A stretch of DNA of 64,000 nt from Vicinamibacteria bacterium (GTDB lineage: Bacteria; Acidobacteriota; Vicinamibacteria; Marinacidobacterales; Marinacidobacteraceae), in assembly GCA_963555995.3 (NCBI GenBank), contig OY821641.1, positions 2,560,001 through 2,624,000 on the forward strand, read 5' to 3'. The notes under the pieces are model-generated. The model did no database searches. It was not told where the DNA came from and saw only the letters and a program-made list of their open reading frames with translations. Every line of letters begins with the position of its first letter. The stretch's first letter is position 1. Both the position numbers and the translations under genes were made by a program. Positions 23,590 to 48,663 of the stretch are shown here, piece by piece.

Positions 23590-25194
23590 TCACTTCGGAA
23601 TCTGTCCAGCCCGGGATTCCGGGAGGGCCCCGCCCAGCAGCAGGTCCCGGAACCACTCCGGCGGCGCAGCGCCGGGCCGGAGCGTGATCGCCCCGACCCG
23701 GTTGTCCGCGACGAATGTTTCATCCGCGAGCCACGATGCCGCGCTCACGTCTGGCACGAGCAGCAGGGTCGCGTCGGATCGTTCCCCGTCCCAGCGGAGC
23801 GCGTCCTGATAGGGGTGGGCGGATTCCGCCATTCCGCCCACGATCCCCTCCGGGCGCGCGCGGTACTTCGCGTCAAGGACCACGAAACCGGAACCTTCCG
23901 CCAGCCCCTCCCGATGCAGGACGAGATCCGGCACGAACTGGGCGGAAACCGACCGCAAGTCCGCTCCGTGCCGCGACGCGGTCTTCTGCAGGAAGAGAGA
24001 GATCGCAGCGCGGTCGCCGCGCCGGAACCGGACCCACCGGCGGTCGCCCTTCTCCCGTCCCTGTGACTTCCGCCATTCCGCCTCCGGAAGCCATTCCCGC
24101 AGCCGACGCGCCAACTCCACGAAGCACCACCGCTCGTAGATCTCCCAAGTCGGGCTGAGCGGGAGGTCGTCCTCGGCGTCGCGATGGATTCCGGGCCGGA
24201 GGGCCTCCCACCCGGTCCGCCAGAACTGCGCGTACATCGGGTGCGCGGCGACGGCGTTCAGCCCGGCCGCGGTGATCTCGGGCCGCCGGGCGTCCCGGAA
24301 GGGCGACTTCCGCTCGGCGCGCTCGAAGCGCCGGGACATCCGGTCCAGAATCTCTTCCCAGCGGGGTAGCCGCGTCCGGAACCCGGTCCGGGTCTCGGCC
24401 TCGCCTTCCTTCCCCGCCTCGTCCCGCAGCCGTTCCCGCACCCGTCCGGCGCGTCGCCGGAGCGCCCGCAGCATGGTGAGCGCGGCGCGGTTCGCGGGAG
24501 CGTCGAGGCTGCGCTCGGCGGCCGGCGTGTCCAGGAACGGCGGGCTCGCGGGTGACGCCCCCATCTCCGCCGGGCGCGTCTGCGGGAGCGCCGCAAGCGC
24601 CGCCGGTTCGCGCAGCGCGGTGCGGAGCGTGCGGAGGTCGGCGCGGCGCACCCGGTGGAGCGGGACCCACTCCCGCCGGGTGCGCAACACGCTGCGCGGC
24701 TCACGGTGGATCGCGGCGATGGCGCGGACGAGCGCCCCTTCCCGGCGGCGGAGGCGCTCCAGCGCGACCAGCGGATCGTCCGCTTCCCCGAGAGCGCCGA
24801 GCCGTTCGCGGGCAGGCTCCGTCCCGAGCACCAGTTCGGGATCGTGGTCGAGGATCTCCGTCAACATGCGGTCGAAGGTTTCCGGGTCCGCCTTGTCCGG
24901 GTCCGGACTCACGCCGAGCCGCCAGCTCCCGAGCGCTGTTCCATCCGGTGCGAGAAGTTCGGCGCGCACCGGCCCGGCGTAGTAGCCGGGCCTCCAGACC
25001 CAGATCGCCTCTCCCGCTTCCAGGGGCTCGTCGTCCACCAGCAGACGGCATCCCTCAGGCATTCCCCGGCCTTCGGGAATCCGGAGCTCCGCCTCGCGCA
25101 ACTCGGAGAACGCGACGTTCGGCCCGGCGGGGTCGAGGGTCACCCACCCCTCTTCCCGCCGCACCTGGAGAGGAACGTGAGGAACGGTTGCCAC
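23590..25194 (-). CDS. McrC-like DUF2357/PD-(D/E)XK nuclease
   Basis: TWEIYERWCF, VPDLVL...VVLDAKYR and YQDAL; directly downstream of an McrB-like ATPase. Confidence 0.85.
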   Translation of the reverse strand: MATVPHVPLQVRREEGWVTLDPAGPNVAFSELREAELRIPEGRGMPEGCRLLVDDEPLEAGEAIWVWRPGYYAGPVRAELLAPDGTALGSWRLGVSPDPDKADPETFDRMLTEILDHDPELVLGTEPARERLGALGEADDPLVALERLRRREGALVRAIAAIHREPRSVLRTRREWVPLHRVRRADLRTLRTALREPAALAALPQTRPAEMGASPASPPFLDTPAAERSLDAPANRAALTMLRALRRRAGRVRERLRDEAGKEGEAETRTGFRTRLPRWEEILDRMSRRFERAERKSPFRDARRPEITAAGLNAVAAHPMYAQFWRTGWEALRPGIHRDAEDDLPLSPTWEIYERWCFVELARRLREWLPEAEWRKSQGREKGDRRWVRFRRGDRAAISLFLQKTASRHGADLRSVSAQFVPDLVLHREGLAEGSGFVVLDAKYRARPEGIVGGMAESAHPYQDALRWDGERSDATLLLVPDVSAASWLADETFVADNRVGAITLRPGAAPPEWFRDLLLGGALPESRAGQIPK

Positions 25195-25198
25195 CGCG

Positions 25199-27451
25199 CT
25201 ACCGCCAGAAGCGGAAACTTCCGGTCTCGTCGAGATCCTGGACGAGTTCCCTGACCTTGCGCGCCGAGTCCTTCAGCCCGGCGCCATCGAGCACTTCCCG
25301 GCACTCCTTGAGGGCCTTCCGGTATCGCTCCGAGTCGTCGCCGCGCAGCTTGGGAAGCACCTTGGCGTAGGCGATCTGATCGAGCGCCTCCTCGAACGAC
25401 ATCTCGGCGGAATCCGCGGCGCGCCGTTCGAGGAAGGCGACGAACTCCGAGATCACCCGCCAGCCGAAATGGAGCCGGGCCGGACTCAGCGCCGCCATCA
25501 ACTCGTTCAGCAGCTTCCGAACACGATCCCGTTCGTCGCCGGCCAGCTCGCACGCCTCCCAGCCCGGCCACGCGTCCACCTCGATGTCCCAGAACTCCCG
25601 CGTGAACGCCCGGTCCAGCACCTTGTCCGAGAGTCCCATCGTCGTCTCGTCCATGTTCACGGTGCCGATGAGGACCAGGTTCCGGGGATAGGGAATGCGC
25701 TGCGGCACGCCGAGCGCCATCTCGTCGGAGTCGTGGAACTCCACCATGCCGCCCTCCCGCTCCATCGCGCTGAGCAGCGGCGCGAGGTACTGCTCCGGAT
25801 GGGACAGGTTCATCTCGTCCAGCACGGCGACGTGGACCTCCTTGGGATTCCCCGCCGCGTGCAGCAGGAAGCGCTGGAAGTCGGTTCCCGCGTAGGCGCC
25901 GTCCAGCGGGTTCACGTACCCGAGGAGCGGGCTCGGGTCGTGCCAGCCGGGCGCGGCGGACACCGCGCAGAGCCGGACGGACGACTCGTCGTCGGCGCCC
26001 GTCAGGGCCCGCCCGTACTCCATCGCGAGCTGGGTTTTGCCGCTGCCCGAGAGCCCCGCGAGGATGGCGAAGTGGCGCCGTTCGTTCGCCCAGAGGCCGA
26101 GGTGGAGCGACTCGATCAGCTCGCGGGAGAAGGCGAGGTCGCGTTCGCTAGCGGCGGCCTGGACCCTTTCAACGATCTCACCGAGCGGCGGCACGAACAC
26201 CACCGGGATCGGGTCGTCGTCCTCGTAGCGTTTGGGGAACCAGTGACGCAGGAACCTGTCGTGGTCCTGCTCGGCTCCGTTGAACGTGAAGTCAATCAAG
26301 GCGTCCGCGGCCCAGGGAAGCGTTCCTGAACCGGGCGTGACTTTCCAAAGCGTCGTCCGTTCCGTGTAGAAGTACCACTCGCGGTGTGGTTCCATGGGCG
26401 TCCACTGCACACGGAGTTTGCGACCGTCTCCCATGTTCTCGGTCACGACACCGGTCGCCTTGATCGCCATCGTGGATGTGCTTTCACCCCTGTTGTCGAA
26501 CGGGAGACCGTGTTTCTTGGTGTAGGTGGACTTGATGGCGATACGGTCTCGGCGCTCTATCGACTTGACGCCATCCAGATACCTGTCGTCGTAACCGTTC
26601 TCCCATACACCGTCCCGCAGGAAGCGATCGGTCTGGTCCTCGTTGCCGAAAATCGCTCCGACGAACCAGCAGGGGCGATCTTCTGCGGGCTCAGGCGCGG
26701 CTCCCCCGCCACCGGCGACCGCGAACAAGACCGACTGCGCTTCCAGCCGGTCCCTGGGCCGTTCAAGGCCGGATTCGCGAGCGCGTCGAACGAGTTCGTC
26801 GAGGAATCCCAGTGCGTGGTCGTAGTGTGAGCCCTCGTCGCCGCTGGGGGCAGACGCCGGATGTCCGGTGCGTTCGTACGTCTCGGCGAACTCCGTCACC
26901 TTGTAGGGCGGAAACTGGCGGGCGTCGCGAGCCATCAGGAGAACGGCGATCCATCTCAGACGTGTGCCGGTGCCCTTAGTGGGCGCTTGCTTACCGCTGG
27001 GCAACCTGTCGGGAATCAGAGCCGTGAACGCGCGAATCCGATCGGCAGTTGACAGGCCGATGTCCTCAGCCCAGATTACTCGCAGAGCTTTCCGAGCTTC
27101 GTCCGGCTGCTCGCTGAACCAGTTACGCAGGCCGGTCTTGTCATAAGTGGAGGTGAGGTTGTTGCTGATCGCCTTCGCGACCGCGTCGAGGCAGTTCTCA
27201 TCACCCTGCAGAACGGCCCGACGGGCTTCCTGAAGCTGTCGCTCGATGGCGCGCTTGTAGTCGAGTTCTTCGCTATCCAGACGGCCAGTCTCGATGTAGC
27301 TACGCACTTCATCGAGGTAGAGGTTCCATCGACGGGTCACGCGCGCTCTTCCGGCAATCTCCGAAAGCCCCTCTGGCCCGTACTTGCGGCGTTTCGTCTC
27401 TATTGCCTTCTGCCCCGCCGATGGCGGTCCGCTTGGTAGATCCCTCGTCAT
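25199..27451 (-). CDS. McrB-like AAA+ GTPase with long N-terminal recognition region
   Basis: GLSGSGKT, LDEMNLS, GTVNMDETT..LSDKVLDRA, KVLPKLRG; likely ATG at 27451. Confidence 0.9.
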   Translation of the reverse strand: MTRDLPSGPPSAGQKAIETKRRKYGPEGLSEIAGRARVTRRWNLYLDEVRSYIETGRLDSEELDYKRAIERQLQEARRAVLQGDENCLDAVAKAISNNLTSTYDKTGLRNWFSEQPDEARKALRVIWAEDIGLSTADRIRAFTALIPDRLPSGKQAPTKGTGTRLRWIAVLLMARDARQFPPYKVTEFAETYERTGHPASAPSGDEGSHYDHALGFLDELVRRARESGLERPRDRLEAQSVLFAVAGGGGAAPEPAEDRPCWFVGAIFGNEDQTDRFLRDGVWENGYDDRYLDGVKSIERRDRIAIKSTYTKKHGLPFDNRGESTSTMAIKATGVVTENMGDGRKLRVQWTPMEPHREWYFYTERTTLWKVTPGSGTLPWAADALIDFTFNGAEQDHDRFLRHWFPKRYEDDDPIPVVFVPPLGEIVERVQAAASERDLAFSRELIESLHLGLWANERRHFAILAGLSGSGKTQLAMEYGRALTGADDESSVRLCAVSAAPGWHDPSPLLGYVNPLDGAYAGTDFQRFLLHAAGNPKEVHVAVLDEMNLSHPEQYLAPLLSAMEREGGMVEFHDSDEMALGVPQRIPYPRNLVLIGTVNMDETTMGLSDKVLDRAFTREFWDIEVDAWPGWEACELAGDERDRVRKLLNELMAALSPARLHFGWRVISEFVAFLERRAADSAEMSFEEALDQIAYAKVLPKLRGDDSERYRKALKECREVLDGAGLKDSARKVRELVQDLDETGSFRFWR

Positions 27452-27668
27452 TCTCGCTACTCCTTGCCCAAGGCCTCCATAGCCTCCCCTCAAGCTAAGG
27501 GGCTACGTCTTCGGGGTGGCGTCCGCAGCCCTTCTGCTCCAGGCCCAAACTGAGTTCGGTCATTCCGTTCCCCTCTCCCGGACGGCGCCGGGGCGCGAAT
27601 GATCCCAACGTGGCGCGCCGAAACCTGTCATTCATCGGGCCGGCGGCGCGGCCCCGCGTTCCCGGCGC

Positions 27669-29676: not shown

Positions 29677-30804
29677 TTAGGGGTCCGGTGCAGCGTCCGG
29701 CCCGGTGGGGCGGGTCGCCCGGTAGGCCTGGCGGGGGTGGCTGCGGCTCTCGGGGTAGTGCAGTTCGAGGTGTCCGGCCTTCGTCATCGGGGTCAGGTAC
29801 CGGCGCTTCAGGTAGTTCGTGTCGAAACCGAGCCATGCCGCCAACTCGGCGGGACGGGTCCAGCCGCGAGCCTCCGTGATCTCAAGAATCAACCGGCGCA
29901 CAACGTCGGGGAGCGGGCGCGACGTCTGGCGGATCGCGCGGAGCTCGATCTGCATGTACTCGGGGATGTCGTCCGGCAGCGGCGGCGGGGTCGCCGGAGC
30001 GGGGACGGACGCCGGTTTCGGAGACGCCTTGCGCCGTCGGGCCGGCGCGGGGGACGGTTTCGGTCCGGGTCGCGGTTTCGGCGCAGGCGGCGGTCTCGAC
30101 TCGGGCGGCGGTCTCGACTCAGGCGGCAGTCCCCGCTCCGGGCGTGCCGCGGACCCGACCGGCCTCTCCGGGCGGACGGCTTCCGGTGCGGAGGCGGAGG
30201 ACGCCTCCCGTTGGGCGGCGGGTGCCGGCGGGTCGGGGGCGGGACCGCCACCGTCAGCGGTCCGGTCCGGGTCCGGCGCCGGAGCCGGGACCGGGTCGTC
30301 CATGACCTCTTCCAGGAACCGGGCGGCCCGCTTGGTGAGATCCGTGGCGCCGTCGGTGAACGTGGCGAAGGCGGCCCCCCACAGCACCATACGTTCGCCG
30401 AGGACGGCGCACCAGACCCCGAGCCGACCCAGCCGCCCCTCGGCGCTGCTCCAGTTCCGGCCCCAGGAGCCGACCCGCGCGCCGAGGTTCTGCACTCGGC
30501 GGCCGAGGAATCCGGCGAGCCGCAGGGCCTTGACGACCCGGCCCGAGCCGCGTCCCAGCCAGCGGAGGAAGCGGAGGAACCACTCGCCCAGCCGGACGAG
30601 CCACAGCCAGACGCCGACCCCGAACGTCCAGAGCCGCGGGCGCGGCTTCAGGACGAAGCGGCGGATGCCGGCGAGCCCGGGCGGCTGGCGCGACTCCAGG
30701 AGTCTGCGGACGGACTCGACCGTCTCGACCTCACCGGGATCCTCGCCGTGGGAGGAGGACGGAGGCGGCTCGTCCAACGGCTGCCGAAGGTTCAGGACGC
30801 CCAC
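29677..30804 (-). CDS. Hypothetical protein: amphipathic N-terminus, Pro-rich linker, C-terminal winged-HTH
   Basis: C-terminus VVRRLILEITEARGWTRPAELAAWLGFDTNYLKRRYLTPMTKAGHLELHYPESRSHPRQAYRAT resembles the wHTH tail of Fic-like and Schlafen-ATPase proteins. Confidence 0.7.
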   Translation of the reverse strand: MGVLNLRQPLDEPPPSSSHGEDPGEVETVESVRRLLESRQPPGLAGIRRFVLKPRPRLWTFGVGVWLWLVRLGEWFLRFLRWLGRGSGRVVKALRLAGFLGRRVQNLGARVGSWGRNWSSAEGRLGRLGVWCAVLGERMVLWGAAFATFTDGATDLTKRAARFLEEVMDDPVPAPAPDPDRTADGGGPAPDPPAPAAQREASSASAPEAVRPERPVGSAARPERGLPPESRPPPESRPPPAPKPRPGPKPSPAPARRRKASPKPASVPAPATPPPLPDDIPEYMQIELRAIRQTSRPLPDVVRRLILEITEARGWTRPAELAAWLGFDTNYLKRRYLTPMTKAGHLELHYPESRSHPRQAYRATRPTGPDAAPDP

Positions 30805-35172: not shown

Positions 35173-35362
35173 CCGCCGATTGTAGCCATGGCCATATCTC
35201 GGCTCGCGGACCGCCAGCGCGAGACGACCGGACGCTTCCCGGCCATCTCCCGAACCCCGTACCCCCGATGGCTTTCGTGTGAGGGTAGATCGTTGAATAG
35301 CGGTCAGCCTCCCTGCAGCGCGGCGGCTAGACTTGCGTTCCGCGGAGCGAGAGACCAGCCAG

Positions 35363-35674
35363 ATGACTGAAGCGCGACTGAACGACGTTCGGGAGATCGT
35401 GGCGCAGGTGCTCGCCGAGATCTTCGGCGACACGGTGCGATTCGGACGGATCCACATGGGTTCCCTCGTGGATCACGACGGGTTCGAGTACGTGACCGCC
35501 CGCGTCATCTACGAGTCCCCGGACGAATCGCTCGATGCCAGGAAGATGGTGAGCGTCCATGGCCCCCTGAATGATCGGGTGCTGGCAATCGGGGTGGACG
35601 CCATTCCGGTCGTGTCGTACATCGCCAAGTCGGAAGAACGGGAATGGCTCGGTGATCGCGCGCAATCTGATTGA
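35363..35674 (+). CDS. Small hypothetical protein (possible degenerate MNT-like partner of the HEPN)
   Basis: 103 aa with a DHDG motif; overlaps the HEPN-like gene. Confidence 0.6.
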   Translation: MTEARLNDVREIVAQVLAEIFGDTVRFGRIHMGSLVDHDGFEYVTARVIYESPDESLDARKMVSVHGPLNDRVLAIGVDAIPVVSYIAKSEEREWLGDRAQSD

Positions 35675-36116
35675 GACCGCCCGTTCCCTGATCCCGGCCG
35701 GTCGGGGGCGGCCCCGGGAGACGGACCTTCGCCGCGCCGCGAGTACGACCTACTACGCCGCGTTCCACCGCCTCATGCAGTGCTGCGCCGACCGACTGGT
35801 CGGAACCGGTCTCGCTCGGCAAACTCCCGCCTGGAACCGCGTGTACCGAGCGTTGAACCACGCTCAGTGCGCACGGGTCCGCAGGCGGGAAGCGAGGGGT
35901 CTTTCGATCCCGGTTCGAGCGCTGACAGACCTGCTTCCGGACCTGATGGGTCGCCGACACGCCGCCGACTACGACCCCGGTGCCGACTTCACGAAGTCGG
36001 AGGTCCTCGGAGACATTGGCGCGACCGAAGCTGCGTTGGACGCGTTCGACAGATCATCGGCCAACGATCAGCGCGAGCTCGCCGTCTTCCTGCTGTTCCG
36101 CGAGCGGCCCGACTGA
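35652..36116 (+). CDS. HEPN-like protein
   Basis: DLRRAASTTYYAAFH and RHAADYDP, typical of HEPN subfamilies. Confidence 0.75.
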   Translation: MIARNLIETARSLIPAGRGRPRETDLRRAASTTYYAAFHRLMQCCADRLVGTGLARQTPAWNRVYRALNHAQCARVRRREARGLSIPVRALTDLLPDLMGRRHAADYDPGADFTKSEVLGDIGATEAALDAFDRSSANDQRELAVFLLFRERPD

Positions 36117-37472: not shown

Positions 37473-38636
37473 CTACGCGGCCCAGTCACGCACCCACCCC
37501 ATCATCTCCTCCAGCGGAATCCCCAGGATCTCCGCCCCGCGACCCAGGGAAATGCGACCATCTTCCAGAGCCCTTCTCACCAGTCGGGAAAGGCAATCTG
37601 GCCTGAAGTCGTGCTCCGACAGCGCCACCGGCTCGCTGGCGCGACTCCAGTTCCACGCGAACTCACTCTCCTGGAGCGCTTCCGGCTCATCCCGCTTTCC
37701 CGGAGTCCTTCCGAAGCGACTCCGGTGCTGCGTCTGGAATCTGCCCCAGACATCGCGACTCTCGCGGTCCGTCGTGACGAGCCGGTAGAGCACGGTCCTG
37801 TAGCTGACCCGGAACGTCCGCTTCACTGCGAGAACGCGCACCAGCAGCGGGTACCCGCGAGTGGCCTCCCACTCGACGGCGAAGGCCTCCTCCGGCATCA
37901 GGAACTCGCTGGCAAAGGCGTCCGCATCGGCCTCGGCCTTCCGTGGAAGGTCGGTTTGTTCGCTCCGGAATTCCCCCGGATGGAGAAGCAGATGCCCCAG
38001 TTCGTGGGCAGCCGTGAAGATCCAGCGCTCCACCGAGATCCGGTCCCAGACGTTGACCACCACCGCCGGACCACCGTCCTCCGGCCCCACGCTCAGCCCG
38101 AAGAACGAGTCACGCTTCTTGTCCAGCAAGAGGACCTTGACGCCGCTGTCTTCGAGCAACCGGCAGATGTTGGCGACCGGCGCCCGGGACCCGAGCCCCG
38201 CCGCCCGTCGCACGGCTCTCGCGACCTCCGCGGGAGGCCTGACGCCGTTTGACGCGACCAGTTCCTGAAACCGGAACGGCTGCGTTTCGTTCAGTTCCGC
38301 CTCCAGCCAGACGTAGGCGTCCAGCCTCGCCGAGACTTCCGCGAGCGTCTGCTCTCGCCCGTACATCGTCGAGTGAGCGCGGAAGCGGGCACTCCGAAGC
38401 GGCCGCACGGGGATGACCAGATCCCGGACCGGAACCCCAAGGGCCCGCGCCAGCCCGGCGAGCGTCCCCGCGCGGGGCACAACAACGCCACGCTCGATCT
38501 TCCCGATGGCGACCCGGGACACCCCAACCTGCTCGGCGAGCGCGGCCTGGGTCAGCCGCCGGTCCAGCCGCAGCCGGGCGACGTTCGCAGCGATCGCGGT
38601 CTCTTGAGACATGGCCCCTCGCTTGACAAGCTCCAT
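37473..38636 (-). CDS. XRE-HTH + ImmA/IrrE (M78) metallopeptidase fusion
   Basis: LTQAALAEQVGVSRVAIGKIERG; ERWIFTAAHELGHLLLH (HExxH); EADADAFASEFLMP. Confidence 0.92.
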   Translation of the reverse strand: MELVKRGAMSQETAIAANVARLRLDRRLTQAALAEQVGVSRVAIGKIERGVVVPRAGTLAGLARALGVPVRDLVIPVRPLRSARFRAHSTMYGREQTLAEVSARLDAYVWLEAELNETQPFRFQELVASNGVRPPAEVARAVRRAAGLGSRAPVANICRLLEDSGVKVLLLDKKRDSFFGLSVGPEDGGPAVVVNVWDRISVERWIFTAAHELGHLLLHPGEFRSEQTDLPRKAEADADAFASEFLMPEEAFAVEWEATRGYPLLVRVLAVKRTFRVSYRTVLYRLVTTDRESRDVWGRFQTQHRSRFGRTPGKRDEPEALQESEFAWNWSRASEPVALSEHDFRPDCLSRLVRRALEDGRISLGRGAEILGIPLEEMMGWVRDWAA

Positions 38637-38658: not shown

Positions 38659-39810
38659 GTGAAAACGATGCTCCATAGAGAGACTCAGAACGCCGACTAC
38701 ACTCGGGACCAGAGAGATCCCGCCGTGCCGTATCCCCAACCGACCTTCCCTCGCGCCGAGGTGGACGCCGCCGGGAGAGTCCTCACGGAGACCCCGACCG
38801 CGGACGCAACCGCGGGCGCGGCGCGACAGCGGGCAAGGGAGCTGGTGGACGACTGGCGGGCTTCCCACGCCCATCCGCTGGTCACGTTCCGCGTTCTTCT
38901 GGAGGAGCGCGCCCGCCGCATCGCCCCGGAGGCGCTGGTGGCGCAGCGGCTGAAGCGCCTCGCCTCTGTGGAAGCGAAGCTCCGCCGGTTCCCCTGGATG
39001 AAGGTCTCGCGGATGCAGGACCTCGGCGGCTGCCGGGCCATCCTCCCGTCCGTGCGGGAGGTGCGGGAACTCGTCGAGACCTGCCGACAGGGCCGCGAGG
39101 AACACGAGTTCGTCAAGGAATCCGACTACCTCGAGCAGCCGAAGCGCAACGGCTATCGCAGCGTCCATCGCGTCTATCGCTACCGCTCCCGGGCGGGCCG
39201 GAACGCGGCCTGGAACGGGCATCGGATCGAGATCCAGATCCGGTCCCGCCTGCAGCACGCCTGGGCGACTGCGGTGGAGACGGTGGACGCCCTGACCGGC
39301 ACCCGACTGAAGACGAGCGGCCCCGCGAACGGCCTCTGGGACCGCTTCTTCGCGCTCATGGGGAGCGTCTTCGCCATTGAAGAAGGGTGCCCGCCAGTGC
39401 CAGAGACTCCCGCAACGCGGTCCGAACTGCGGGATGAGGTCCGGGACCTCGTTCGGGCGCTTGACGTGGAGGGCGCGCTCTTCGGTCTGGGGAGCACCAT
39501 CCAGAATGTTCGACTGCCCGCCGACGCCGCGTGGTTCCTGATGAGCCTGGACGCCGCCGGCCGGAAGGTGTTCATCCGCAGCTACGGCCAGCGGCAGTTT
39601 TCCACCGCCCAGGCCGAGTACCTCAGGCTCGAAGCAGAGTACGAAGGCAGGCCCGGGTTCCAGGCGTGCCTCCTGTCCACGGACTCGGCGAAAGCCCTTC
39701 GGCAGGCGTATCCCAACTACTTCCTCGATGTCAGCGCGTTCTCCGAGTCGCTGAACCGGTTTCTCGACGGCCCGGACGATCGGGCCTCCGAGTACCAGCG
39801 TGCTTCCTGA
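38659..39810 (+). CDS. RelA/SpoT small alarmone synthetase, fused CapRel-like
   Basis: QRLKRLASVEAKL, MQDLGGCR, GYRSVH, IEIQIRSRLQHAWA; C-terminal domain ends LRQAYPNYFLD (YxxY). Confidence 0.85.
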   Translation: MKTMLHRETQNADYTRDQRDPAVPYPQPTFPRAEVDAAGRVLTETPTADATAGAARQRARELVDDWRASHAHPLVTFRVLLEERARRIAPEALVAQRLKRLASVEAKLRRFPWMKVSRMQDLGGCRAILPSVREVRELVETCRQGREEHEFVKESDYLEQPKRNGYRSVHRVYRYRSRAGRNAAWNGHRIEIQIRSRLQHAWATAVETVDALTGTRLKTSGPANGLWDRFFALMGSVFAIEEGCPPVPETPATRSELRDEVRDLVRALDVEGALFGLGSTIQNVRLPADAAWFLMSLDAAGRKVFIRSYGQRQFSTAQAEYLRLEAEYEGRPGFQACLLSTDSAKALRQAYPNYFLDVSAFSESLNRFLDGPDDRASEYQRAS

Positions 39811-39896: not shown

Positions 39897-41102
39897 ATGT
39901 TCGACACGAAAGACCAGATCCTCGACCAACTCCGCGCCGGGGAGGACAGCCGCGCCGAGTTCAAAGAAGTGCGCTTCGGGGGCCGCGGGGTGATCTCTCC
40001 CAATACCGAAGATCTGGCCGGCGAACTGGTGGCGTTCGCAAACGCCGGTGGCGGCGCGCTCTTCCTCGGTGTGGACGATTCGGGAAAAGTGCTCGGCATC
40101 CCGTCGGACCGAGTCGGCGCCACGGAACGCTGGCTGGTCAACGTGGCGACGAACAACTGTGATCCCCCGATTCGGCCGGACGTGCGCAAGGTCTGTCTTG
40201 CCGTCCCTAACGGAGATGAGCAGCCGATTCTGGTCATTCGCGTTCCCCGGGGCACCTTCGTCCACCAGACCTCGGGAGGCCGGTACTACGCACGGGTCGG
40301 CTCGACAAAACAGCGGCTCACCTCGCCGGAACTCGCGCGGCTCTTCCAGGATCGCGGCCGCGGTTACGTCTTCGACGAACAGCCGGTGTTCGCCGCCGAC
40401 GTGAACGAGCTCGACTGGGACCGCCTCGAAACATTCTTTGGTCGCTCGCCGAACATTCCGTGGCTCGACCTGCTACGCAACACCCGCGTCGTGCTGCGCG
40501 ACGAGGAGGACGCCGACCGGCCTTCGGTGGCCGGTCTGTTGACCTTCGGCAAACAGCCGACCGAGCACCTGCGGAGCGCCTGGATCGAAGCCGCCTGCTA
40601 CCGGGGAACCCGGCTTTCATCCGACGATCTGATCCACGAGGAGCGCCTCCGCGGCCCGGCCCCCGACCAGATGGACGCCGCGGTCGCCTTCGTCATGCGC
40701 TTCGGCGCCGCCGGTGACGACCCGGCCCGCCGACCGCCCTATGACATCGAGGTGGTGGACGAGGCCATCGTCAACGCCGTCGCCCACCGCGACTATTCCA
40801 TCTACGGCGCAAAGATCCGCCTCTTCCTGTTCGCCGACCGCCTGGAGCTCTACAGCCCGGGTAAGCTGCCCAACACGATGACGCTGGAGGAAATGCCCTA
40901 CCGCGTCTTCACCCGTAACCAACACCTCGTGAACTTCCTCTCCCGCATCCACAGCAAGCGCACGGGCCGGGTCTTCCTCGAATCGCGCGGCGAAGGCGTC
41001 CGTAGGATCCTTGAAGGCGGCGAAGCCCACTCCGGCCGCCGCCCCAAGTACGAACTCTTCGGCGAGGAACTCCGCCTTACCCTCTGGACCAAAGCACGGT
41101 GA
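39897..41102 (+). CDS. Schlafen/AlbA_2 domain + HATPase_c_4 protein
   Basis: GEDSRAEFKE, LVAFANAGGGALFLGVDD, YYARVGST, EAIVNAVAHRDY, SPGKLP, ESRGEGV. Confidence 0.9.
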   Translation: MFDTKDQILDQLRAGEDSRAEFKEVRFGGRGVISPNTEDLAGELVAFANAGGGALFLGVDDSGKVLGIPSDRVGATERWLVNVATNNCDPPIRPDVRKVCLAVPNGDEQPILVIRVPRGTFVHQTSGGRYYARVGSTKQRLTSPELARLFQDRGRGYVFDEQPVFAADVNELDWDRLETFFGRSPNIPWLDLLRNTRVVLRDEEDADRPSVAGLLTFGKQPTEHLRSAWIEAACYRGTRLSSDDLIHEERLRGPAPDQMDAAVAFVMRFGAAGDDPARRPPYDIEVVDEAIVNAVAHRDYSIYGAKIRLFLFADRLELYSPGKLPNTMTLEEMPYRVFTRNQHLVNFLSRIHSKRTGRVFLESRGEGVRRILEGGEAHSGRRPKYELFGEELRLTLWTKAR

Positions 41103-41271: not shown

Positions 41272-43479
41272 ATGGGCTGGGGCGGAATGCATCGCGACGG
41301 GAAGGAAAACCGATTGCACTGCATGTGGCGTCGCGTCACGGAGATACTGGGGTCCCCTTGGCGCTGGTGGCGGAACCGAAAAGGACGCGCAGCGGGCCAG
41401 ATGCCGGCGGTGCTCGGCGATGGTTTGGGCGGAGCGAATTGGGACCGGCATCCAGTACCAACAAGCTCGGAGACTGCACCGCCCACAGCGGAACCAACCG
41501 AGGCAGAACCAAGTAACACGGCGCAGGAGAACGACACCGACCCACTACCGACTCCCGATAAGGATCGCGCCGGGGGCGAACCAATCTCGCACGGAATTGC
41601 TGAGAGGGAGCGCGACAGCGAAGCGTCGCGACGACCGCGGTCGCGCGGGGGCGAACGCGGGCGGGAGCATCGGGGCAAGGATCCTGCTGACGGGGAGACT
41701 GTGTGGCATCCGTCGGCAACAAAGGAGGGACAGGTAGAGATCGTGTGCCGTGAGCACGAAGGGCGGTGGGAGCTAGCGGTCGTGCCGCGTCGCGGCGTGG
41801 TGGTGCGCGGCACCGATGGGCAGCTGGCGTCAGCGAACGGCGAATTCGTTCCGGCATCCTTTCGCAGCGAGGTCTATATCGAGAACGTCGCAGGAGGAGA
41901 GCGCCGACTCCTGCCGCTGTATACGGACAAACCAATGGTCTTCCAAGTCGGCACGGACTGGCGGGGTCCGGGCCGCAAAGTGCGCGGAGTCGGTGTCGGC
42001 CACTTCGTGGCGATCGTGCCCATGGAGTGGACCCGTTGGGGAAGCGCGCCGGTGAAGCCGGAACCATGTGCGGATGCGGGTTTCTGCGCGCACTACTTCC
42101 ACGGGGCTCGAGGGGACGCACCGAAGGCCGAAGGGTTCGAAGAATTCGGCGCCGTGTCGACCTCGGTCATCGAACTTGTCGGTCGGCGGGTCTTCGACGA
42201 CTCGGATCAGGGCGAGCTGTACGTGGGGCATGTACCGGAGCTAAACGCGCCAGGCATGGCGTGGGCACATGTGGGCGAGGAGGGTCGAAAAGGCTGGCGC
42301 GAAACCTATCGCCTGGACAGCGGACAAACGCTCGCCGATGTCGTCGGGGATCGCCAAGGGTGGTTCTTTGTACGCGTGTACCGCGAGGGCGAAATAGTGC
42401 AGGCGGACAGCGTCCAGTTCCGATACCTCGCGAGTCTGCGGGAGATCCGCATCGACGGGAGGCCGTACACGGCCGACACGCTCTTGACTCCGGGGCCGCG
42501 AGGCCACGGAACGTCGCGGATCGATTTCGTCGGATCAACCAAAGCCCGCGTCCGCATCGAGGGAACGGTGACGAGCGGACTGAGTGTGGCGCCCGGTGGC
42601 ACGTCGGTCGCGTGTGCCCCGCACCCAGAGCTGGGGGAGTTGCAGTTTCGGTTGACCGATGGCCACGGAGCGGTGGATGTTGTGATCGACCTGCCGCGGG
42701 TGTGGTGGCGGCTGGAGCGCGCGGGACAGGCGCTGGCCTCCTGGAGGGACCGATCCGATACCGTGACTAGGAACGAGTACCGAGCGCTGGCGCTCGACGG
42801 GTTTGCGGTAACGGTAAGGGTGCCGGCACGGGCCGCCCCGGTCGGGTTCGGCTTCGACGAGGAAGGTCGAGTGGGGTACCCGGGCAGGCGGGAGGGACGG
42901 CGCGCGTTGTGCGTCGTGTCGCTCCGGGATTTCGCGGACCACGAGGAGATCGACCGGCGGTTGTTCCGGGATGCCGTCTTTGGCGCGCGCTGCGGGGAGG
43001 CCATAGTGGACCTCATGAAGGTGGCCGCCGACCCGTTACCCAAGATCGCTGAATTCACAGTCGCGCCTGCTCGCGCGCGGGTGGGGGAGACGGTGGCCGT
43101 ACTCTGGAGGATCGAGAACTGCGAAGGCGTCGAAGTCTCACTGGAGCCGGACGTCGGTCCGGTGGCTGCCGAGGGCCGGTACAAAATCCGAATGGACCGA
43201 CGGACGCGGGTGGCCCTGCGGCTCGTCGCACCCGGGATGAACGACCTCGTGCGCGAGTTCTTCGTCGACTTGGAGCCACCCGCGGCGTCCTTGGAGCAAC
43301 AGCCCATAGCGCGCGCAAGGCGAGCCGGGAGCTGGCGTCGCGCGAAGGGATTCAGCCCCGGGGAGATGGCGGAGGCCGCGGGCTCAGTGCGACTATCGGT
43401 AAGGCGCGACCGGCGCCGCAGAAGCGCGCACGCGATCAACATCGCGTCACTTGAGGACTGGATGAATGCACAACGCTGA
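41272..43479 (+). CDS. Large hypothetical protein, beta-rich, with C-terminal Ig/PKD-like and L13e-like segments
   Basis: 735-aa ORF overlapping the helicase start by 14 nt; exact start uncertain. Confidence 0.75.
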   Translation: MGWGGMHRDGKENRLHCMWRRVTEILGSPWRWWRNRKGRAAGQMPAVLGDGLGGANWDRHPVPTSSETAPPTAEPTEAEPSNTAQENDTDPLPTPDKDRAGGEPISHGIAERERDSEASRRPRSRGGERGREHRGKDPADGETVWHPSATKEGQVEIVCREHEGRWELAVVPRRGVVVRGTDGQLASANGEFVPASFRSEVYIENVAGGERRLLPLYTDKPMVFQVGTDWRGPGRKVRGVGVGHFVAIVPMEWTRWGSAPVKPEPCADAGFCAHYFHGARGDAPKAEGFEEFGAVSTSVIELVGRRVFDDSDQGELYVGHVPELNAPGMAWAHVGEEGRKGWRETYRLDSGQTLADVVGDRQGWFFVRVYREGEIVQADSVQFRYLASLREIRIDGRPYTADTLLTPGPRGHGTSRIDFVGSTKARVRIEGTVTSGLSVAPGGTSVACAPHPELGELQFRLTDGHGAVDVVIDLPRVWWRLERAGQALASWRDRSDTVTRNEYRALALDGFAVTVRVPARAAPVGFGFDEEGRVGYPGRREGRRALCVVSLRDFADHEEIDRRLFRDAVFGARCGEAIVDLMKVAADPLPKIAEFTVAPARARVGETVAVLWRIENCEGVEVSLEPDVGPVAAEGRYKIRMDRRTRVALRLVAPGMNDLVREFFVDLEPPAASLEQQPIARARRAGSWRRAKGFSPGEMAEAAGSVRLSVRRDRRRRSAHAINIASLEDWMNAQR

Positions 43480-46400
43480 AGAGCTGAGCGGCTGGACGGA
43501 GACCATCCGACAGCGTTATCGGAACTATTTGCGGACATCGTTCTTCTTCAAGGAACCCGCGCTGCGAACCTCGTTCGCAGTGGCGCTAGAGCAGGAGGCG
43601 GAGCTGCTGAAGGGACCGTTTCCGGAACCGGGACGGTTGTTCGCCCGTGGCGTGAGCGCGCCGGAGCTCGCGCAGGAATACCTCGGTAGTGAGTGCGACG
43701 GGTTGCGTCCGGCACTGCTTGACAATCCCTTGTACACGCACCAAGAGCGGGCTGTACGAATGACCTTCGGCGAAGCGCGCAACGTTGTGGTGGCCACCGG
43801 GACGGCGAGTGGCAAAACGGAGAGCTTCCTGTATCCGATCCTGTTCGAGTTGTACCGGCAGCATCTGGCCGGGCAGCTTGCGGTGCCGGGTGTTCGCGCC
43901 TTGGTGCTCTATCCGATGAACGCGCTCGCGAACGATCAACGGGAGCGTCTGCGGAAAATCTGCCGCACGCTAGAACACCACGGTTCGGATTTCATACCGA
44001 CGTTTGGGCAGTACATCGGCGAGACCCCCTACATTGCGCCGGCCGACGTGGCCGAGGAGGCTGCCCGTGGTGAACTGCTAGGCCGTGAGCAGATGCGGCA
44101 GACACCGCCACACATCCTCTTGACGAACTACTCGATGCTGGAATACCTGCTGATGCGGCCGGACGATAGTCCGCTGTTCGAGAACAGCAGCCAGTGGCAG
44201 TTCATGGTGCTTGACGAGGCTCACCAGTACCGGGGCGCGAAAGGCATGGAGATGGGGATGCTGCTGCGGCGCCTCAAACAACGCCTGCGCGACGGCGGGC
44301 GGGCGGACGCGTTCCGCTGCATCGCAACGAGTGCCACGATGAGTTCGGGGGAGGGCGGCAAAGAGCGCCAAGCGGTCGCGGACTTCGCGACGGCTCTGTT
44401 CGGCGAACCGTTCGAAATGGACGGCGTAATCTTCGGGGAACTGGACGCAACAGATCGCCCCATGGCCACTGCGGGGCGCTACCACGCGTTTCTGCGGGCC
44501 TTGGAGGGCGCCTTCTTGGTCCATCGTGGTGGCAGGGACGTAGTGGTTTTGAACCGCAGCGGTGGGGAGGCACCAGCGGGGCCTCCCGTGCCGCTCGAGA
44601 TCGCGCTCTGCAGGGAATGTGGGCAGCACTACTATGTGGGTCGCGAGCGCGGCGGGCGGCTCGCGGAAGGAATTCGGGATCCCAGCCACGAGTCGTTCGG
44701 CGTCGAGTACTTCCTGCCGACGGACTACGCGGCCACACACTGGCTCTGTCGCCGCTGCGGGGCGCTGTCCGGCGGCGGGCCTACGTGCGATTGCGACGCA
44801 GGCACGGGGGTGAAGCACTGCGAGGCACATCCGGACCGGCCGGACCAGTTGCGCGAATGCGCTGTGTGCGGCTACCAGCGGGGTAGTCTGGGCGATCCCG
44901 TCCAAGAGATCGTGCACGGGTCAGACGGGCCGAACGCAGTGATCGCCACGGCGCTCCACGAAGTGCTGCCAGCAGAGCGCCGCAAGGTGTTGGCGTTCGC
45001 GGACAGCCGGCAGGAAGCCGCGTTCTTCGCCTGGTACGCGGAGGACTCATACAAGAAGCTCCGCGATCGCAACCTCATGCTTCGGGCGCTCCGCTCGAGT
45101 CCCATCGATGTCGAAGGGTTGTCGGTGGACGACCTGGCGACACGGTTGGCACGGCAATGGGACGCAGCCGGTCTCCTGAAGGAATCCGACACTCAGGAGA
45201 CACGCAAGCGCGCGGTCCTTGGGTCGATCTTTGCAGAGGCGCTCACCGAAGAGCGGCGCCTTTCATTGGCGGGCGTAGGGCTCGTGAAATGGACGGTGAG
45301 AATCCCAGCAGATGTCTTATTGCCCGCTATCGTGCATGCGACGCCGTGGCGCTTGAGCGATTTCGAGGCGCGGGAACTGATCGGCTTCCTGCTGGAACAG
45401 ATGCGCACGCGGCGTGCTCTCGCGCTGCCGGAGGGACCGGGAGCGCCGGACTGGGCCGATGTGACGCCGTGGGCGACCCAGGCGTTCGCACCCGGCCCAC
45501 CCGGACGCCGAAAGGGCGTGGTGCAATGGGGCGGACCGCAATCGGCCGTCGTCACGCACTATCTCGCCAGGCTGCTCGGTGCCGAGGTTTTCGAGGAGCA
45601 GCGCCCGCAAACGTCTCAGGCGCTGATGCGGGCGCTGTGGCAGGCACTCCGGGACCGGGATCGCGCCCACCGTTCGGACGAACAGCTGTTGTGGGGTGGC
45701 CAGGGCAGGTGGAACGGGACGTTCCGGATTAGCCCACACTGGCTGCGGGTCCAGCTGGCCGACGCAGCCGACATCTGGGAATGTGACACGTGCGCAGGGC
45801 TGAGCGCACACCGCGTGCGCGGCATCTGTCCCCGCAACGGATGCCCCGGAACGCTTGGCTCGGTAGACGAGGGGCGATTAGGTCAGAACCACTATCGGAT
45901 TCTCTACGAGAGCGACGAACTTCCCGCCGAATTGGTGGCGGAAGAGCACACCGCGCAGATCGAAAGCGGTGAGGCGCGGCGCCGTCAACGGGATTTCAAG
46001 GATGGATCGACACACTTGCTCAGCTCGTCGACGACGTTTGAGGTAGGTGTCGACCTCGGCGATCTGGACGTGGTATTCCTGCGAAACGTCCCGCCCGAGC
46101 CATTCAACTACACACAACGCGTGGGGCGTGCCGGGCGCCGGGACAGGCCCGGGCTCGCGCTGACGTACTGCCGGCGGAACCCGCACGACCTGTACCACTA
46201 CGGCGACCCCGAGGAGCGGGTGATCAGGGGCAAAGTGGAGCCACCCAGGCTCCGGATGACGAATGAGAGGATCATCGTACGGCACATGGTTGCCGCGTCG
46301 CTTGCGGCCTTTTTCAAGGCTGACGACAACCGCGGCCGGTTCAAGAATGTGGAGGCGTTCGTGGGGGACTGGTCGGCACCTCGGAGCGTGTCGGACGTAA

Positions 46401-47677
46401 GGAGCTTTTGCACCGGCAACGCGGCGCTTGGGAAGGCGCTGCGTCGCATCGTTCCTGATGAGATGCACGACGCGGTCGGTCTGTCCTCGGACGGCTGGGT
46501 GAGGCGCGTCTGCGGGCCCGCGAGCCGCTTCGCGCAAGTTGAAGCGGAGGTAGTTTCTGACTACCAACGCATGGAAGACTTGCGACTGGCGCTATTCCAG
46601 AAGCGGGAGAGCACGGGTCGGGTCGAGGCTCGGATCAGGACGGTACGCCGTGAATCGACCCTGACTTTCCTGTCGCGCAAGGCGGTGATCCCGAAATACG
46701 GCTTTCCGGTGGATGTCGTAGAACTGGACACGCACTCGGAGGACGGGCGCGTGGCCCTGCAACGGGATCTGTCGCAGGCGATCGCGGAGTACGCACCAGG
46801 GGGGCGCGTTGTTGCGAACAAGCGCGAGTGGTCGTCGTACGGGCTGAAGATGGTAGCTGGGAAGGCGTGGCCCGTGCGGTCCTACGCGTACGACGACGCA
46901 CGGAGTTTCCGGCAGTGGCACGAGGGCGATCCGTCAGCGCCGCCTGATGCCCGCCGATATGTGATCCCGGAATGGGGGTTCGTGACCCAGTGGTCGAAAC
47001 AACCGCCACGGCCGCAGGGCCGCGCGCGGCGCTTCTACACTACCCGGCCGTTCTTCCGGGGCTTCGGCCGCGTGGATCGGCCGACCACGCGCGTCGTTCG
47101 CGGCGTGGAGGTGACGCAGGCGCAACCCGGGACGCTCGTGATTCTCTGCGAAGGGAGGAACCGGTCGGGTTTCTACATCTGCGGCATGTGCGGCGCGCAT
47201 GCCACGGCGCGAAAGAGGGCACATCGGACACCTGCGAACATCGCTTGCCAAGGTTCGATGGGCTGGTTCTCGCTCGGCCATGAACTCGTAACCGACGTGG
47301 TGCGCCTGAAGTTTCCGGGAGTCGGAGACGAGTGGCACGCATACTCGGTCGGGTATGCCGTGCTCCTGGGCGCCGCGGAGACGCTCGGCGTGCCCAACAC
47401 GGACTTGAACGTGACGATTGCAAGGGCTGAAGATCCAGGCACGTCCGCCATCGTGCTCTACGACGCGGTGCCGGGTGGGGCCGGACTGGTCGCGCAACTC
47501 GAGCGTGACGACGTGTTTTCACGCGTGCTGGTGCTCGCCCGTCAGCGCGTGGACGGCGACTGTGGTTGCGATTCAAGCTGTTACGGTTGCCTACGCAGCT
47601 ACCGGAATCAGTTCGCGCATCCGTACCTCCACCGGATGCGCGCGGCGGAGACGCTGGACGCGCTAAGAGGGCCGTGA
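43466..47677 (+). CDS. DEAD/DEAH helicase with Zn-finger inserts and C-terminal DUF1998 (DruE/MrfA-like)
   Basis: ATGTASGKT, YPMNALANDQ, TNYSMLE, DEAHQY, ATSAT, FADSRQ, STTFEVGVD, QRVGRAGRR, YDAVPGGAG, CGCDSSCYGCL. Confidence 0.93.
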   Translation: MHNAEELSGWTETIRQRYRNYLRTSFFFKEPALRTSFAVALEQEAELLKGPFPEPGRLFARGVSAPELAQEYLGSECDGLRPALLDNPLYTHQERAVRMTFGEARNVVVATGTASGKTESFLYPILFELYRQHLAGQLAVPGVRALVLYPMNALANDQRERLRKICRTLEHHGSDFIPTFGQYIGETPYIAPADVAEEAARGELLGREQMRQTPPHILLTNYSMLEYLLMRPDDSPLFENSSQWQFMVLDEAHQYRGAKGMEMGMLLRRLKQRLRDGGRADAFRCIATSATMSSGEGGKERQAVADFATALFGEPFEMDGVIFGELDATDRPMATAGRYHAFLRALEGAFLVHRGGRDVVVLNRSGGEAPAGPPVPLEIALCRECGQHYYVGRERGGRLAEGIRDPSHESFGVEYFLPTDYAATHWLCRRCGALSGGGPTCDCDAGTGVKHCEAHPDRPDQLRECAVCGYQRGSLGDPVQEIVHGSDGPNAVIATALHEVLPAERRKVLAFADSRQEAAFFAWYAEDSYKKLRDRNLMLRALRSSPIDVEGLSVDDLATRLARQWDAAGLLKESDTQETRKRAVLGSIFAEALTEERRLSLAGVGLVKWTVRIPADVLLPAIVHATPWRLSDFEARELIGFLLEQMRTRRALALPEGPGAPDWADVTPWATQAFAPGPPGRRKGVVQWGGPQSAVVTHYLARLLGAEVFEEQRPQTSQALMRALWQALRDRDRAHRSDEQLLWGGQGRWNGTFRISPHWLRVQLADAADIWECDTCAGLSAHRVRGICPRNGCPGTLGSVDEGRLGQNHYRILYESDELPAELVAEEHTAQIESGEARRRQRDFKDGSTHLLSSSTTFEVGVDLGDLDVVFLRNVPPEPFNYTQRVGRAGRRDRPGLALTYCRRNPHDLYHYGDPEERVIRGKVEPPRLRMTNERIIVRHMVAASLAAFFKADDNRGRFKNVEAFVGDWSAPRSVSDVRSFCTGNAALGKALRRIVPDEMHDAVGLSSDGWVRRVCGPASRFAQVEAEVVSDYQRMEDLRLALFQKRESTGRVEARIRTVRRESTLTFLSRKAVIPKYGFPVDVVELDTHSEDGRVALQRDLSQAIAEYAPGGRVVANKREWSSYGLKMVAGKAWPVRSYAYDDARSFRQWHEGDPSAPPDARRYVIPEWGFVTQWSKQPPRPQGRARRFYTTRPFFRGFGRVDRPTTRVVRGVEVTQAQPGTLVILCEGRNRSGFYICGMCGAHATARKRAHRTPANIACQGSMGWFSLGHELVTDVVRLKFPGVGDEWHAYSVGYAVLLGAAETLGVPNTDLNVTIARAEDPGTSAIVLYDAVPGGAGLVAQLERDDVFSRVLVLARQRVDGDCGCDSSCYGCLRSYRNQFAHPYLHRMRAAETLDALRGP

Positions 47678-47820
47678 GGTCTGCGGTGCGGCGACCGCCA
47701 AGAATGCCGAGGTCCGGCTCGAGGGCCGTCCGGACTCCAACGTTTTTCGGAGTGGGCGGACACGGGGTCATATGCCGCGTATCGGAGCGACCAGAGTCGT
47801 AACGGAGGTTGAGATCGGAC

Positions 47821-48663
47821 GTGAAGAAGCAACTTGGGTACAGCGAGTTCTCCTTCGGGTACGCCTTCACGGAGAACTTGGTGCGGTCGTCGGCGGCGGG
47901 TCCGCCGGCCGCACCGCGTTTTCCAAACCTGCAAGAGGAGGGACAGCTTGGCTATGACGTGCAGTTGACGGCGGGAGGAGTTCCGTTGTTCCTGCAGTTC
48001 AAGCTGCCGGAACGGATGGTGCGCACGACGGCGGCCGAGATTTCGAAGTACGGCCTCAATCGGAGTGGTCTGTCAACACCGTTCTTTCGGTTGTATCTGA
48101 TGAAGAGGAACGTGTCCCGGCAGCACGAGCTGCTGATCGAAATAGAACAGAAGGAGCCTGGAAGCGTCTTCTACGCAATGCCCCACCTGGTTGGACCGCG
48201 AGAATTCAGCACGGCCTACGCCGCTATGGCCGTGCATCGACACTCCGTGCTGTTTTCTCCCTGTGATATCGGTCCGTTGCGAGACGATGCGCAGCACACA
48301 GTTGCGTACGACCCGAGGTCGCGCGGCGCGTGGTTTTGTTCGGAGCCGAAACTCATTGAAGCCCACGATGTCGTGTCGGTGCTTGCGGAGAGGGGCCGGG
48401 CGGCGAGTGAGCAGGTGACAGGTGGTTTGGCAGCCGTGGCGCGAGCGATTTCCGGACGGATTCTGTCGACGAGACCCGGTGAGCTTGACGACGTAGCAGC
48501 TGCGGCGCGGGAACGGCGGCGGCGCATCGTCGCGGATTCGCGGCAGCGCGACGAGGCAGAGGAAGCCGTTGAGGAGCTGTTCATCGCACGAGAGTTAGCC
48601 CGCATCGGACTAGGTGTGGAGTTGCTGATCGCGCAGCCCCGCCCTGCGACGGCGACGAGGTGA
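47821..48663 (+). CDS. Hypothetical protein, putative PD-(D/E)XK-like nuclease
   Basis: SEFSFGYAFTE...EEGQLGYDVQL....PLFLQFK resembles an E...D...QxK restriction-fold motif; GTG start at 47821 (TTG at 47809 possible). Confidence 0.6.
   Translation: MKKQLGYSEFSFGYAFTENLVRSSAAGPPAAPRFPNLQEEGQLGYDVQLTAGGVPLFLQFKLPERMVRTTAAEISKYGLNRSGLSTPFFRLYLMKRNVSRQHELLIEIEQKEPGSVFYAMPHLVGPREFSTAYAAMAVHRHSVLFSPCDIGPLRDDAQHTVAYDPRSRGAWFCSEPKLIEAHDVVSVLAERGRAASEQVTGGLAAVARAISGRILSTRPGELDDVAAAARERRRRIVADSRQRDEAEEAVEELFIARELARIGLGVELLIAQPRPATATR

Follow-up and report, generated by a model that had tools for sequence, protein, structure and literature searches.

This work concerns a pair of adjacent genes in a 64,000-nucleotide stretch of DNA from a Vicinamibacteria bacterium (GenBank assembly GCA_963555995.3, contig OY821641.1, positions 2,560,001 to 2,624,000 of the forward strand), referred to here as the window and numbered from its first letter. 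Gene 1 encodes a partner protein whose terminal domain is a genuine core of eL13, the archaeal and eukaryotic ribosomal protein also known as L13e, and gene 2 encodes a helicase related to DruE of the Druantia defense systems. We conclude that the conserved unit consists of these two genes and not of three, that the type of system is known, and that what appears to be new is the partner family with its captured tails. The reading that we favor, with a probability of about one half, is that the two genes form a Druantia III-B-like anti-phage pair in which the tail, here eL13, would act as a nucleic-acid-binding recognition head.

Gene 1 (735 aa, 41272..43479, + strand) occupies the position of DruH and overlaps gene 2 (1403 aa, 43466..47677, + strand) by 14 nt (43466-43479). 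A third gene, which is co-oriented, starts 143 bp past the helicase end; its open reading frame (ORF) of 284 aa spans 47809-48663 (+ strand), the likelier form being 47821..48663 (280 aa), with a GTG start at 47821, a GGAGG at 47804-47808 and the same length as the database protein. The initial annotation of this DNA had proposed an undescribed three-gene defense module, and the coordinates agree with its description of three co-oriented genes of which the first two overlap by 14 nt. It had also made the proposal depend on conserved linkage of all three genes in the neighborhoods of homologues, where only the pair recurs. Among 45 gene-1 loci (38 from a species-level genome collection and 7 from relatives), the helicase, whole or in part, lies directly downstream of gene 1 in 38. 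Of the seven exceptions, five carry a gene 1 that is shortened or split, another stops where its contig ends, and in the last, L003, gene 1 is intact; loci L015, L032, L033, L036, L037 and L038 are broken. What follows the intact, eL13-tailed gene-1 homologue in L003 (9410-15134) is a gene with GmrSD_N and then one for an AAA/DUF3696 ATPase, and this locus has either lost its helicase or has a different effector.

The hosts, all of them metagenome-assembled genomes (MAGs), belong to Pseudomonadota, Acidobacteriota, Chloroflexota, Latescibacterota, Spirochaetota, Rhodothermota, Binatota, Gemmatimonadota and Verrucomicrobiota. A full match is found in 7 of 60 relatives and in 1 of 400 genomes of the phylum, which is a patchy distribution, and the pair lies in defense-rich neighborhoods. 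Near-identical DNA occurs in sequencing runs labeled sponge metagenome, and the taxa suggest that the other MAG hosts are sponge symbionts as well. No RNA run is listed among the sequencing runs that match the window DNA, and 126 pattern matches in viral contigs yielded no confirmed case. Neither a methyltransferase nor an SNF2 helicase adjoins the pair in the window, and no such family is recurrent beside it in the 45 loci.

The class of the helicase follows from its domains, its alignment with E. coli DruE and its place in a tree. Gene 2 contains DEAD, Helicase_C and MZB/DUF1998 domains above the Pfam cut-offs, and its best PADLOC models are those of DruE (E 8e-144 to 1e-98, over partial stretches), with the DrmA and DpdJ models scoring far lower. 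The alignment retains the Walker A motif (43802..43819, + strand, residues 113-118, aligned with residues 117-122 of E. coli DruE), the DEAH box (44213..44224, + strand, residues 250-253, invariant across 35 helicases), motif VI, the wedge phenylalanine (F1080, corresponding to F1327) and the cysteines of the MZB/DUF1998 zinc-binding domain (47354..47593, + strand, PF09369 E 2.9e-12). None of the 381 residues of the PLD region of E. coli DruE and only 3 of the 79 residues of its PD dimerization subdomain align to gene 2; both PLDs and the PD subdomain are thus missing, and the combination that marks the III-A type is not present. In a FastTree phylogeny of 26 rows, gene 2 clusters with the 1559-aa C. 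butyricum helicase NPD4_RS01535, apart from the III-A and ARMADA helicases. Table S1 of Bell et al. (PMC12458937) labels NPD4_RS01535, MSMEG_1254 and OXT64_14250 "Druantia Type III-B-like", and because it lists the tree neighbor together with the other two, the helicase class is already known. The label reaches the window helicase through a homologous locus and the tree: OXT64_14250 is the locus-tag neighbor of OXT64_14245 (P0018), a gene-1 homologue with 52% identity, the adjacency of the two being inferred from the tags. A compact DruE-type (YprA/MrfA) helicase with MZB and without PLD, membership in this clade and a single upstream partner are all found, as in Druantia III-B. The earlier assignment as Druantia-III-like is therefore borne out by the DruE models and the III-B-like clade, and the word "undescribed" stands for the partner family while it fails for the helicase clade, which is published. 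The III-B system MSMEG_1253-1254 is reported to protect M. smegmatis, with both genes required (PMC13316683).

The partner is the more unusual of the two proteins. Its structure model has a mean pLDDT (predicted local distance difference test) score of 75.8 and begins with a predicted amphipathic helix (residues 18-35, 41323..41376, + strand; modeled as helix 11-39 with low pLDDT). In 101 of 119 homologues the hydrophobic moment of this helix is above the mean of shuffled sequences, and the helix might possibly be a membrane-surface anchor. A disordered and variable linker follows (residues 33-150, 41368..41721, + strand; pLDDT below 50), and then a conserved core of tandem beta-sandwich domains (residues ~152-588, 41725..43035, + strand), which matches no Pfam, NCBIfam or PADLOC family. 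The next segment (residues 589-670, 43036..43281, + strand) superposes on several Ig-like folds at Z 8-9.4, with a root-mean-square deviation (rmsd) of 2-3 Å over ~78 residues (VIA). This Ig-like domain is optional, being absent from 52 of 218 family members with a complete core. The exchangeable tail, here the eL13 core domain (residues ~678-735, 43303..43476, + strand), is matched by both profile and fold, and the unusual C-terminus that the initial annotation had noticed is thereby explained as an Ig-like plus an eL13-like domain.

The relation of the partner to DruH is less direct. The PADLOC DruH models match none of 42 gene-1 family members, while E. coli DruH itself matches 10 of these models; the proposed check against full-length DruH and DruE profiles thus gave no DruH match and DruE matches over partial stretches. 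A comparison of the family profile with single DruH sequences gave nothing significant, and fold searches with the gene-1 model returned no DruH structure among their matches. Foldseek with the whole model found generic tandem-Ig matches only, and an atlas search with the core gave a best score of 0.77, which is a lead at most. The C. butyricum partner of the listed III-B helicase likewise matches no DruH model, from which it follows that these models miss some III-B partners. Since E. coli DruH is described as six tandem Ig-like subdomains (10.64898/2026.05.12.722862), the partner may still be a remote homologue of DruH.

Several comparisons identify the tail as eL13. The gene-1 family profile matches Pyrobaculum eL13 at E 1.2e-7, and all 60 of the PDB matches listed are eL13; the tail model superposes on the same Pyrobaculum chain (Z 8.2, rmsd 1.8 Å, 60 residues; VIA); and the tail profile recovers free L13e proteins with E down to 5e-17. 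The window's own tail copy, taken alone, is below the family cut-offs (PRK12277 at E 1.8e-4), and Pfam L13e is above its cut-off in three gene-1 homologues. The tails share the core fold of eL13 (PF01294, and the short archaeal L13e PRK12277) and retain its G-F-S-x-x-E and D-x-R-R-x-x-x-H-x-x-N signature; the differences are that the window copy is a core of ~58 residues alone and that it is fused to a bacterial defense-type protein. To our knowledge, bacteria normally have no eL13. In three of five host genomes, scanning with Pfam L13e detected the fused copy alone, but the control was positive in none of 14 genomes including Sulfolobus, so the scan cannot prove that a native eL13 is missing from the hosts. 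The donor tree, based on 80 columns, lacks resolution at its deep forks and names no donor lineage; one of the ten eL13 clusters that were looked up carried a taxon name (Desulfurococcales). Median identity among homologues is 46% in the eL13 tail, 43% in the core and 19% in the linker, and the median charge per 100 aa is +11.5 in the tail and -3.6 in the core. The ratio of nonsynonymous to synonymous polymorphism (pN/pS) is 0.48 in the tail as against 0.71 in the linker, an estimate based on six pairs that overlap in part and whose uncorrected pS is near 0.5. In two loci (L029:11315-11719 and L030:11306-11701) the middle of the eL13 tail contains an insertion of ~65 aa that keeps the frame.

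The tail is exchanged across the family. We pooled 229 family sequences, composed of the 150 best profile matches less one repeat protein, word-search matches and the loci, with ~7 proteins counted twice (as a locus and as a database protein). An eL13 tail is present in 178 of the 220 members whose core is complete at its C-end, a proportion biased towards eL13 because the profile contained the eL13 tail and only top matches entered. The other tails above the Pfam cut-offs are uS5 (7), bS6 (1), uS17 (1), TrcR (one protein, twice in the pool) and a MacB periplasmic domain (1); a NusA C-terminal repeat is below the cut-off at E 1.7e-7. Further groups, to which Pfam, NCBIfam and own-genome searches gave no name, were labeled by eye as HTH-like (helix-turn-helix), basic helix, zinc ribbons and an S6-like pair (P0200, P0262). 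On a tree of 112 cores (36 non-eL13 and 76 of the 178 eL13, with 6 short or cut tails excluded), 19 changes of the eL13 label are counted, with at least 10 forced by strong branches; the uS5-tailed partners need two gains, of which strong branches force just one. Because the non-eL13 tails nest among the eL13 ones on this tree, eL13 is likely the older tail. The most distant homologue, L133 (G051:C235), has the same core, a 1549-aa helicase and a basic helical tail with no eL13, and is possibly a bridge to other III-B partners.

In five of five genomes with a fused uS5, the native rpsE is kept as well, and identity of the fused copy to the host's own uS5 is 91, 89, 54, 31 and 27%. The ratio of nonsynonymous to synonymous substitution rates (dN/dS) is 0.07-0.34 for the fused copies (unsaturated pairs) and 0.02-0.05 for the native genes; together with the eL13 data, these values indicate from the sequences that both the eL13 and the fused uS5 tails are under selection. 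In genome G019 the fused uS5 and the product of the host's own rpsE are 91% identical (dS 0.40) and group together at a support of 95/98, and the core of the G019 partner is 54% identical to the core of a partner whose uS5 has drifted to ~30%. A single clade of fused uS5 copies is rejected by the approximately unbiased (AU) test, at p 0.007 with three copies and p 0.017 with two, in a test of 8 rows with one long branch. The G019 grouping and this rejection imply that, within one family, the current host gene has served more than once as the source from which uS5 was captured or refreshed.

Compared with known systems, the window pair resembles Druantia III-B and III-B-like loci in its two co-oriented, overlapping genes with a large partner 5' of a compact YprA/DUF1998 helicase without PLD. 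It differs from III-B in the length of the helicase (1403 aa versus 1559-1667) and of the partner (~750 aa versus ~1100), in the partner's lack of a DruH profile match, and in the partner's disordered N-terminal linker and exchangeable tail. With Druantia III-A (E. coli DruH-DruE) it shares the helicase motifs, the wedge phenylalanine, the MZB domain and a partner based on tandem Ig-like domains, but the helicase is without the PLD domains and the PD subdomain, and the partner is without the globular N-terminal or the large C-terminal domain of DruH and shows no detected sequence homology to it. DISARM, ARMADA and Dpd also contain a YprA/DUF1998 helicase; the window pair, in contrast, has no methyltransferase, no SNF2 helicase and no split DrmA/DrmB. 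No methyltransferase was found among the scanned ORFs of 17.7-56 kb, some ORFs there being outside the scan, and the view that the locus is neither DISARM nor classical restriction-modification (R-M) therefore stands. No prior description of the partner family or of its captured tails was found in the literature searched, which excludes bioRxiv supplements and most subscription papers, and the supplements of PMC12458937, one file of them incomplete, gave no match for L13e or ribosomal.

Gene 3 has a different history. None of the 69 aligned sequences departs from E13, D50, Q63 or K65, in keeping with the E..D..QxK motif noted in the initial annotation, and a PD-(D/E)xK nuclease is plausible. 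Leaving helical matches aside, the fold comparison ranks Hjc (Z 6.1, rmsd 3.7 Å, 108 residues) and I-Ssp6803I (Z 5.8) highest, with four more restriction-endonuclease-fold matches, every one at Z below 8 (Z 5-6); they are suggestive, Foldseek with the same model gives nothing at E 0.001, and gene 3 is likely to be such a nuclease as judged from motif and model. It is found in 0 of the 45 gene-1 loci, 35 of which could be read for at least 1.5 kb beyond the helicase, and gene 1 is found in 0 of 65 metagenome loci of the gene-3 family (37 of them at least 5 kb long). The counterparts of gene 3 in these 65 loci, with each neighbor family named from a single representative, instead accompany hmaA and hmaB (15 loci), HerA (6) and type I R-M genes (4). 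In nine loci (L062, L074, L075, L084, L087, L088, L093, L100 and L102) the gene-3 homologue lies between hmaA and hmaB with overlaps of a few bases. Genes embedded at this position have been reported to give defense in 7 of 9 tested cases (Payne et al., 10.1101/2024.01.29.577857). The gene-3 family shares the position with these genes, but no PADLOC model matches gene 3 or nine homologues, including the HEC models if these are present in v2.0.0, and an atlas search gave only unnamed clusters, with DUF6615 as the nearest named family at 0.84. The family is, on its gene context, a candidate for an unnamed Hma-embedded nuclease. Contigs from three other studies span the helicase end into gene 3 at ~89-97% identity, from which it follows that the three genes travel together in close strains; linkage beyond close strains was rejected on the two zero counts. 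Gene 3 thus appears to be a mobile accessory gene that was inserted behind the pair in the window's lineage rather than a core part of the system, and it is a separate good candidate for a new single-gene nuclease defense. In genome G001 (L134:7821-10168), a gene-3 homologue is interrupted by a 1.3-kb insertion and lies beside a PDC-S01-like gene.

In the mechanism that we favor, the beta-sandwich domains of the partner would form a scaffold, which the N-terminal amphipathic helix on its long linker possibly holds at the membrane. The tail would replace the C-terminal ssDNA-binding domain of E. coli DruH and bind the exposed single-stranded DNA (ssDNA) or RNA of an invader, and this binding would load or license the helicase, which, having no nuclease of its own, would then start at a single-stranded overhang, open the phage DNA in the 3' to 5' direction and stall replication. 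New tails would arise when host genes that encode ribosomal or transcription proteins become fused in frame, and a change of tail could shift specificity or evade phage inhibitors; gene 3, dispensable across the family, may cut the unwound DNA. We favor a binding head because E. coli DruH is reported to bind ssDNA at the interface of Ig5 and its C-terminal domain through Arg, His and Lys residues (10.64898/2026.05.12.722862), that is, through basic residues of the C-terminal domain beside an Ig domain. A further reason is that eL13 tails are strongly basic and that eL13 has no bacterial counterpart to mimic; with no eL13 in bacteria for a phage to target, a binding role fits better than a decoy role. 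Several observations weigh against this reading. Homology to DruH is not demonstrated (hhalign against six III-A DruH sequences gives a probability of 2.2% and P 0.022). Some tails are acidic or are not known nucleic-acid binders, such as the MacB periplasmic domain, the charges per 100 aa being -17 for the TrcR part, -3.4 for the NusA repeat and -1.8 for bS6, and the conserved eL13 residues may be structural rather than functional. PLDs are reported to be dispensable for E. coli Druantia defense (10.64898/2026.05.13.724758; 10.64898/2026.05.12.722862), but the PD subdomain is reported to be required (10.64898/2026.05.13.724758), and since gene 2 is without the latter its mechanism may differ from that of III-A. 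Finally, repeated capture of the host's current uS5 is more directly predicted by models in which the tail is a decoy or a tether.

The strongest of the alternatives, though clearly the less probable one in our view, is that the tail is an integrated decoy, a bait copy of a host ribosomal or transcription protein, and that a phage protein which targets the genuine protein by binding or modifying it also engages the bait and thereby switches the helicase on. Plant nucleotide-binding leucine-rich repeat (NLR) receptors carry integrated decoy domains of this kind. With one exception the named tails (eL13, uS5, bS6, uS17, NusA repeat, TrcR) are core gene-expression proteins, the native rpsE is retained in the five fused-uS5 genomes, and the re-copied host uS5 as well as the acidic tails are better explained in this way. 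Phage proteins have been reported to bind host ribosomes, with uS5 among the pull-down hits of one such protein (PMC11849849, PMC10931766), and DruH has been proposed as a sensor of phage proteins (PMC13192584). The commonest tail, however, is without a bacterial counterpart, four of the seven fused uS5 copies are only 27-39% identical to native uS5 and would be poor mimics, and HTH-like or basic helical domains without a name make up many of the tails. It is a tentative proposal that the partner is a receptor with an exchangeable head which has repeatedly taken up in-frame copies of its host's ribosomal and transcription proteins, and in one case an archaeal ribosomal protein, and whose refreshed host-protein copies serve as decoys for phage hijackers of gene expression; if true, the family would be a prokaryotic counterpart of the plant integrated-decoy receptors and its list of tails would map phage targets. 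Binding-head and decoy roles need not exclude each other and could coexist across different tails.

Less probable still is a tether: through its tail the partner would dock on ribosomes or RNA polymerase and bring the helicase close to the expression of invader genes, for example with fused uS5, bS6 or uS17 inside the 30S subunit. These three proteins were captured whole and are fused via their N-termini, two uS5 copies share 89-91% of their residues with the host protein, and uS5 is reported to lie at the mRNA entry site (PMC10931766); yet no eL13 site is known on bacterial ribosomes, and the drifted uS5 copies are without the N-terminal loop sequence. The idea that gene 3 is a dedicated effector nuclease, which would substitute for the missing PLDs in a conserved three-gene system, was part of the initial annotation and now appears improbable. 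The position of gene 3 behind the helicase and the bridging contigs speak for it, as do the convergent arrangement of a gene-3 homologue and a related helicase in L066, one of the 65 metagenome loci, and, circumstantially, three close homologues of gene 1 and gene 3 on contigs of the same size (10287, 273287 and 4660265), but they are outweighed by the lack of any co-occurrence in the 45 and 65 loci and by the other company that gene-3 homologues keep; gene 3 may nevertheless add an activity in the window's lineage. Similarly improbable, in our view, are a gene end prone to recombination that picks up its tails as neutral passengers, and a role of the pair in MrfA-like DNA repair. The many tail types, some of them fast-drifting, the several broken loci and the repair enzymes reported among YprA helicases (PMC12458937) would fit, whereas conservation of the eL13 tail equals that of the core across many phyla, the fused uS5 copies have low dN/dS, the captured domains are whole and in frame, and the patchy distribution and the defense-island setting speak against a housekeeping role.

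What a Druantia partner senses is still debated, ssDNA and phage proteins having both been proposed in papers of 2026. The family described here amounts to a natural experiment in which one scaffold and one helicase are combined with more than 12 different tails, among which are several complete ribosomal or transcription proteins, and exchanging the tails would put the question of what is sensed to a direct test. An archaeal and eukaryotic ribosomal domain under selection in bacteria of many phyla is, moreover, a rarity.

The genomic setting agrees largely with what had been noted before. G+C content is 65.0% over 41.1-48.7 kb as against 70.2% genome-wide, and of 500 stretches of 7.6 kb taken from the genome, 2.8% have a value as low as this. 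The A/T-rich segment that had been pointed out is thus real, but the dip is modest and in part common to the left flank (31.3-41.1 kb, 67.1%), with the right flank at 71.5%. The three genes close a cluster of toxin-antitoxin, insertion-sequence and defense genes, as had been proposed, with ISL3, PIN/Phd, HigA-like, HI1420, HTH-IrrE (RmrA-like), RelA/SpoT (PDC-S33) and AlbA_2-RecG genes as neighbors; on the right side follow a peptidase and other ordinary genes. The cluster reaches further left than the limits given earlier, to an McrBC-like pair at 23590-27493 (- strand), which encodes a 764-aa AAA+ protein (PADLOC PDC-M26A, E 6e-34; Walker A and an NxxD-type motif by eye) and a protein with DUF2357 and PDDEXK_7.

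Further members of the neighborhood include a 375-aa ORF at 29677-30804 (- strand), whose product is amphipathic in its N-terminal part, contains a linker rich in proline and gives a weak match to a Fic-like HTH at its C-terminus (E 0.0012). Two small overlapping ORFs of 113 and 181 aa at 35333-36116 (+ strand) match no Pfam, NCBIfam or PADLOC family and look by eye like a nucleotidyltransferase-HEPN pair. An RmrA-like protein with HTH and IrrE/M78 peptidase domains is encoded at 37473-38636 (- strand; E 2e-39). A stand-alone RelA/SpoT-domain protein at 38659-39810 (+ strand) matches the PADLOC candidate PDC-S33 over its full length (E 4e-106), and a protein with AlbA_2 and a RecG-like C-terminal part (39900-41102, + strand) lies immediately 5' of gene 1.

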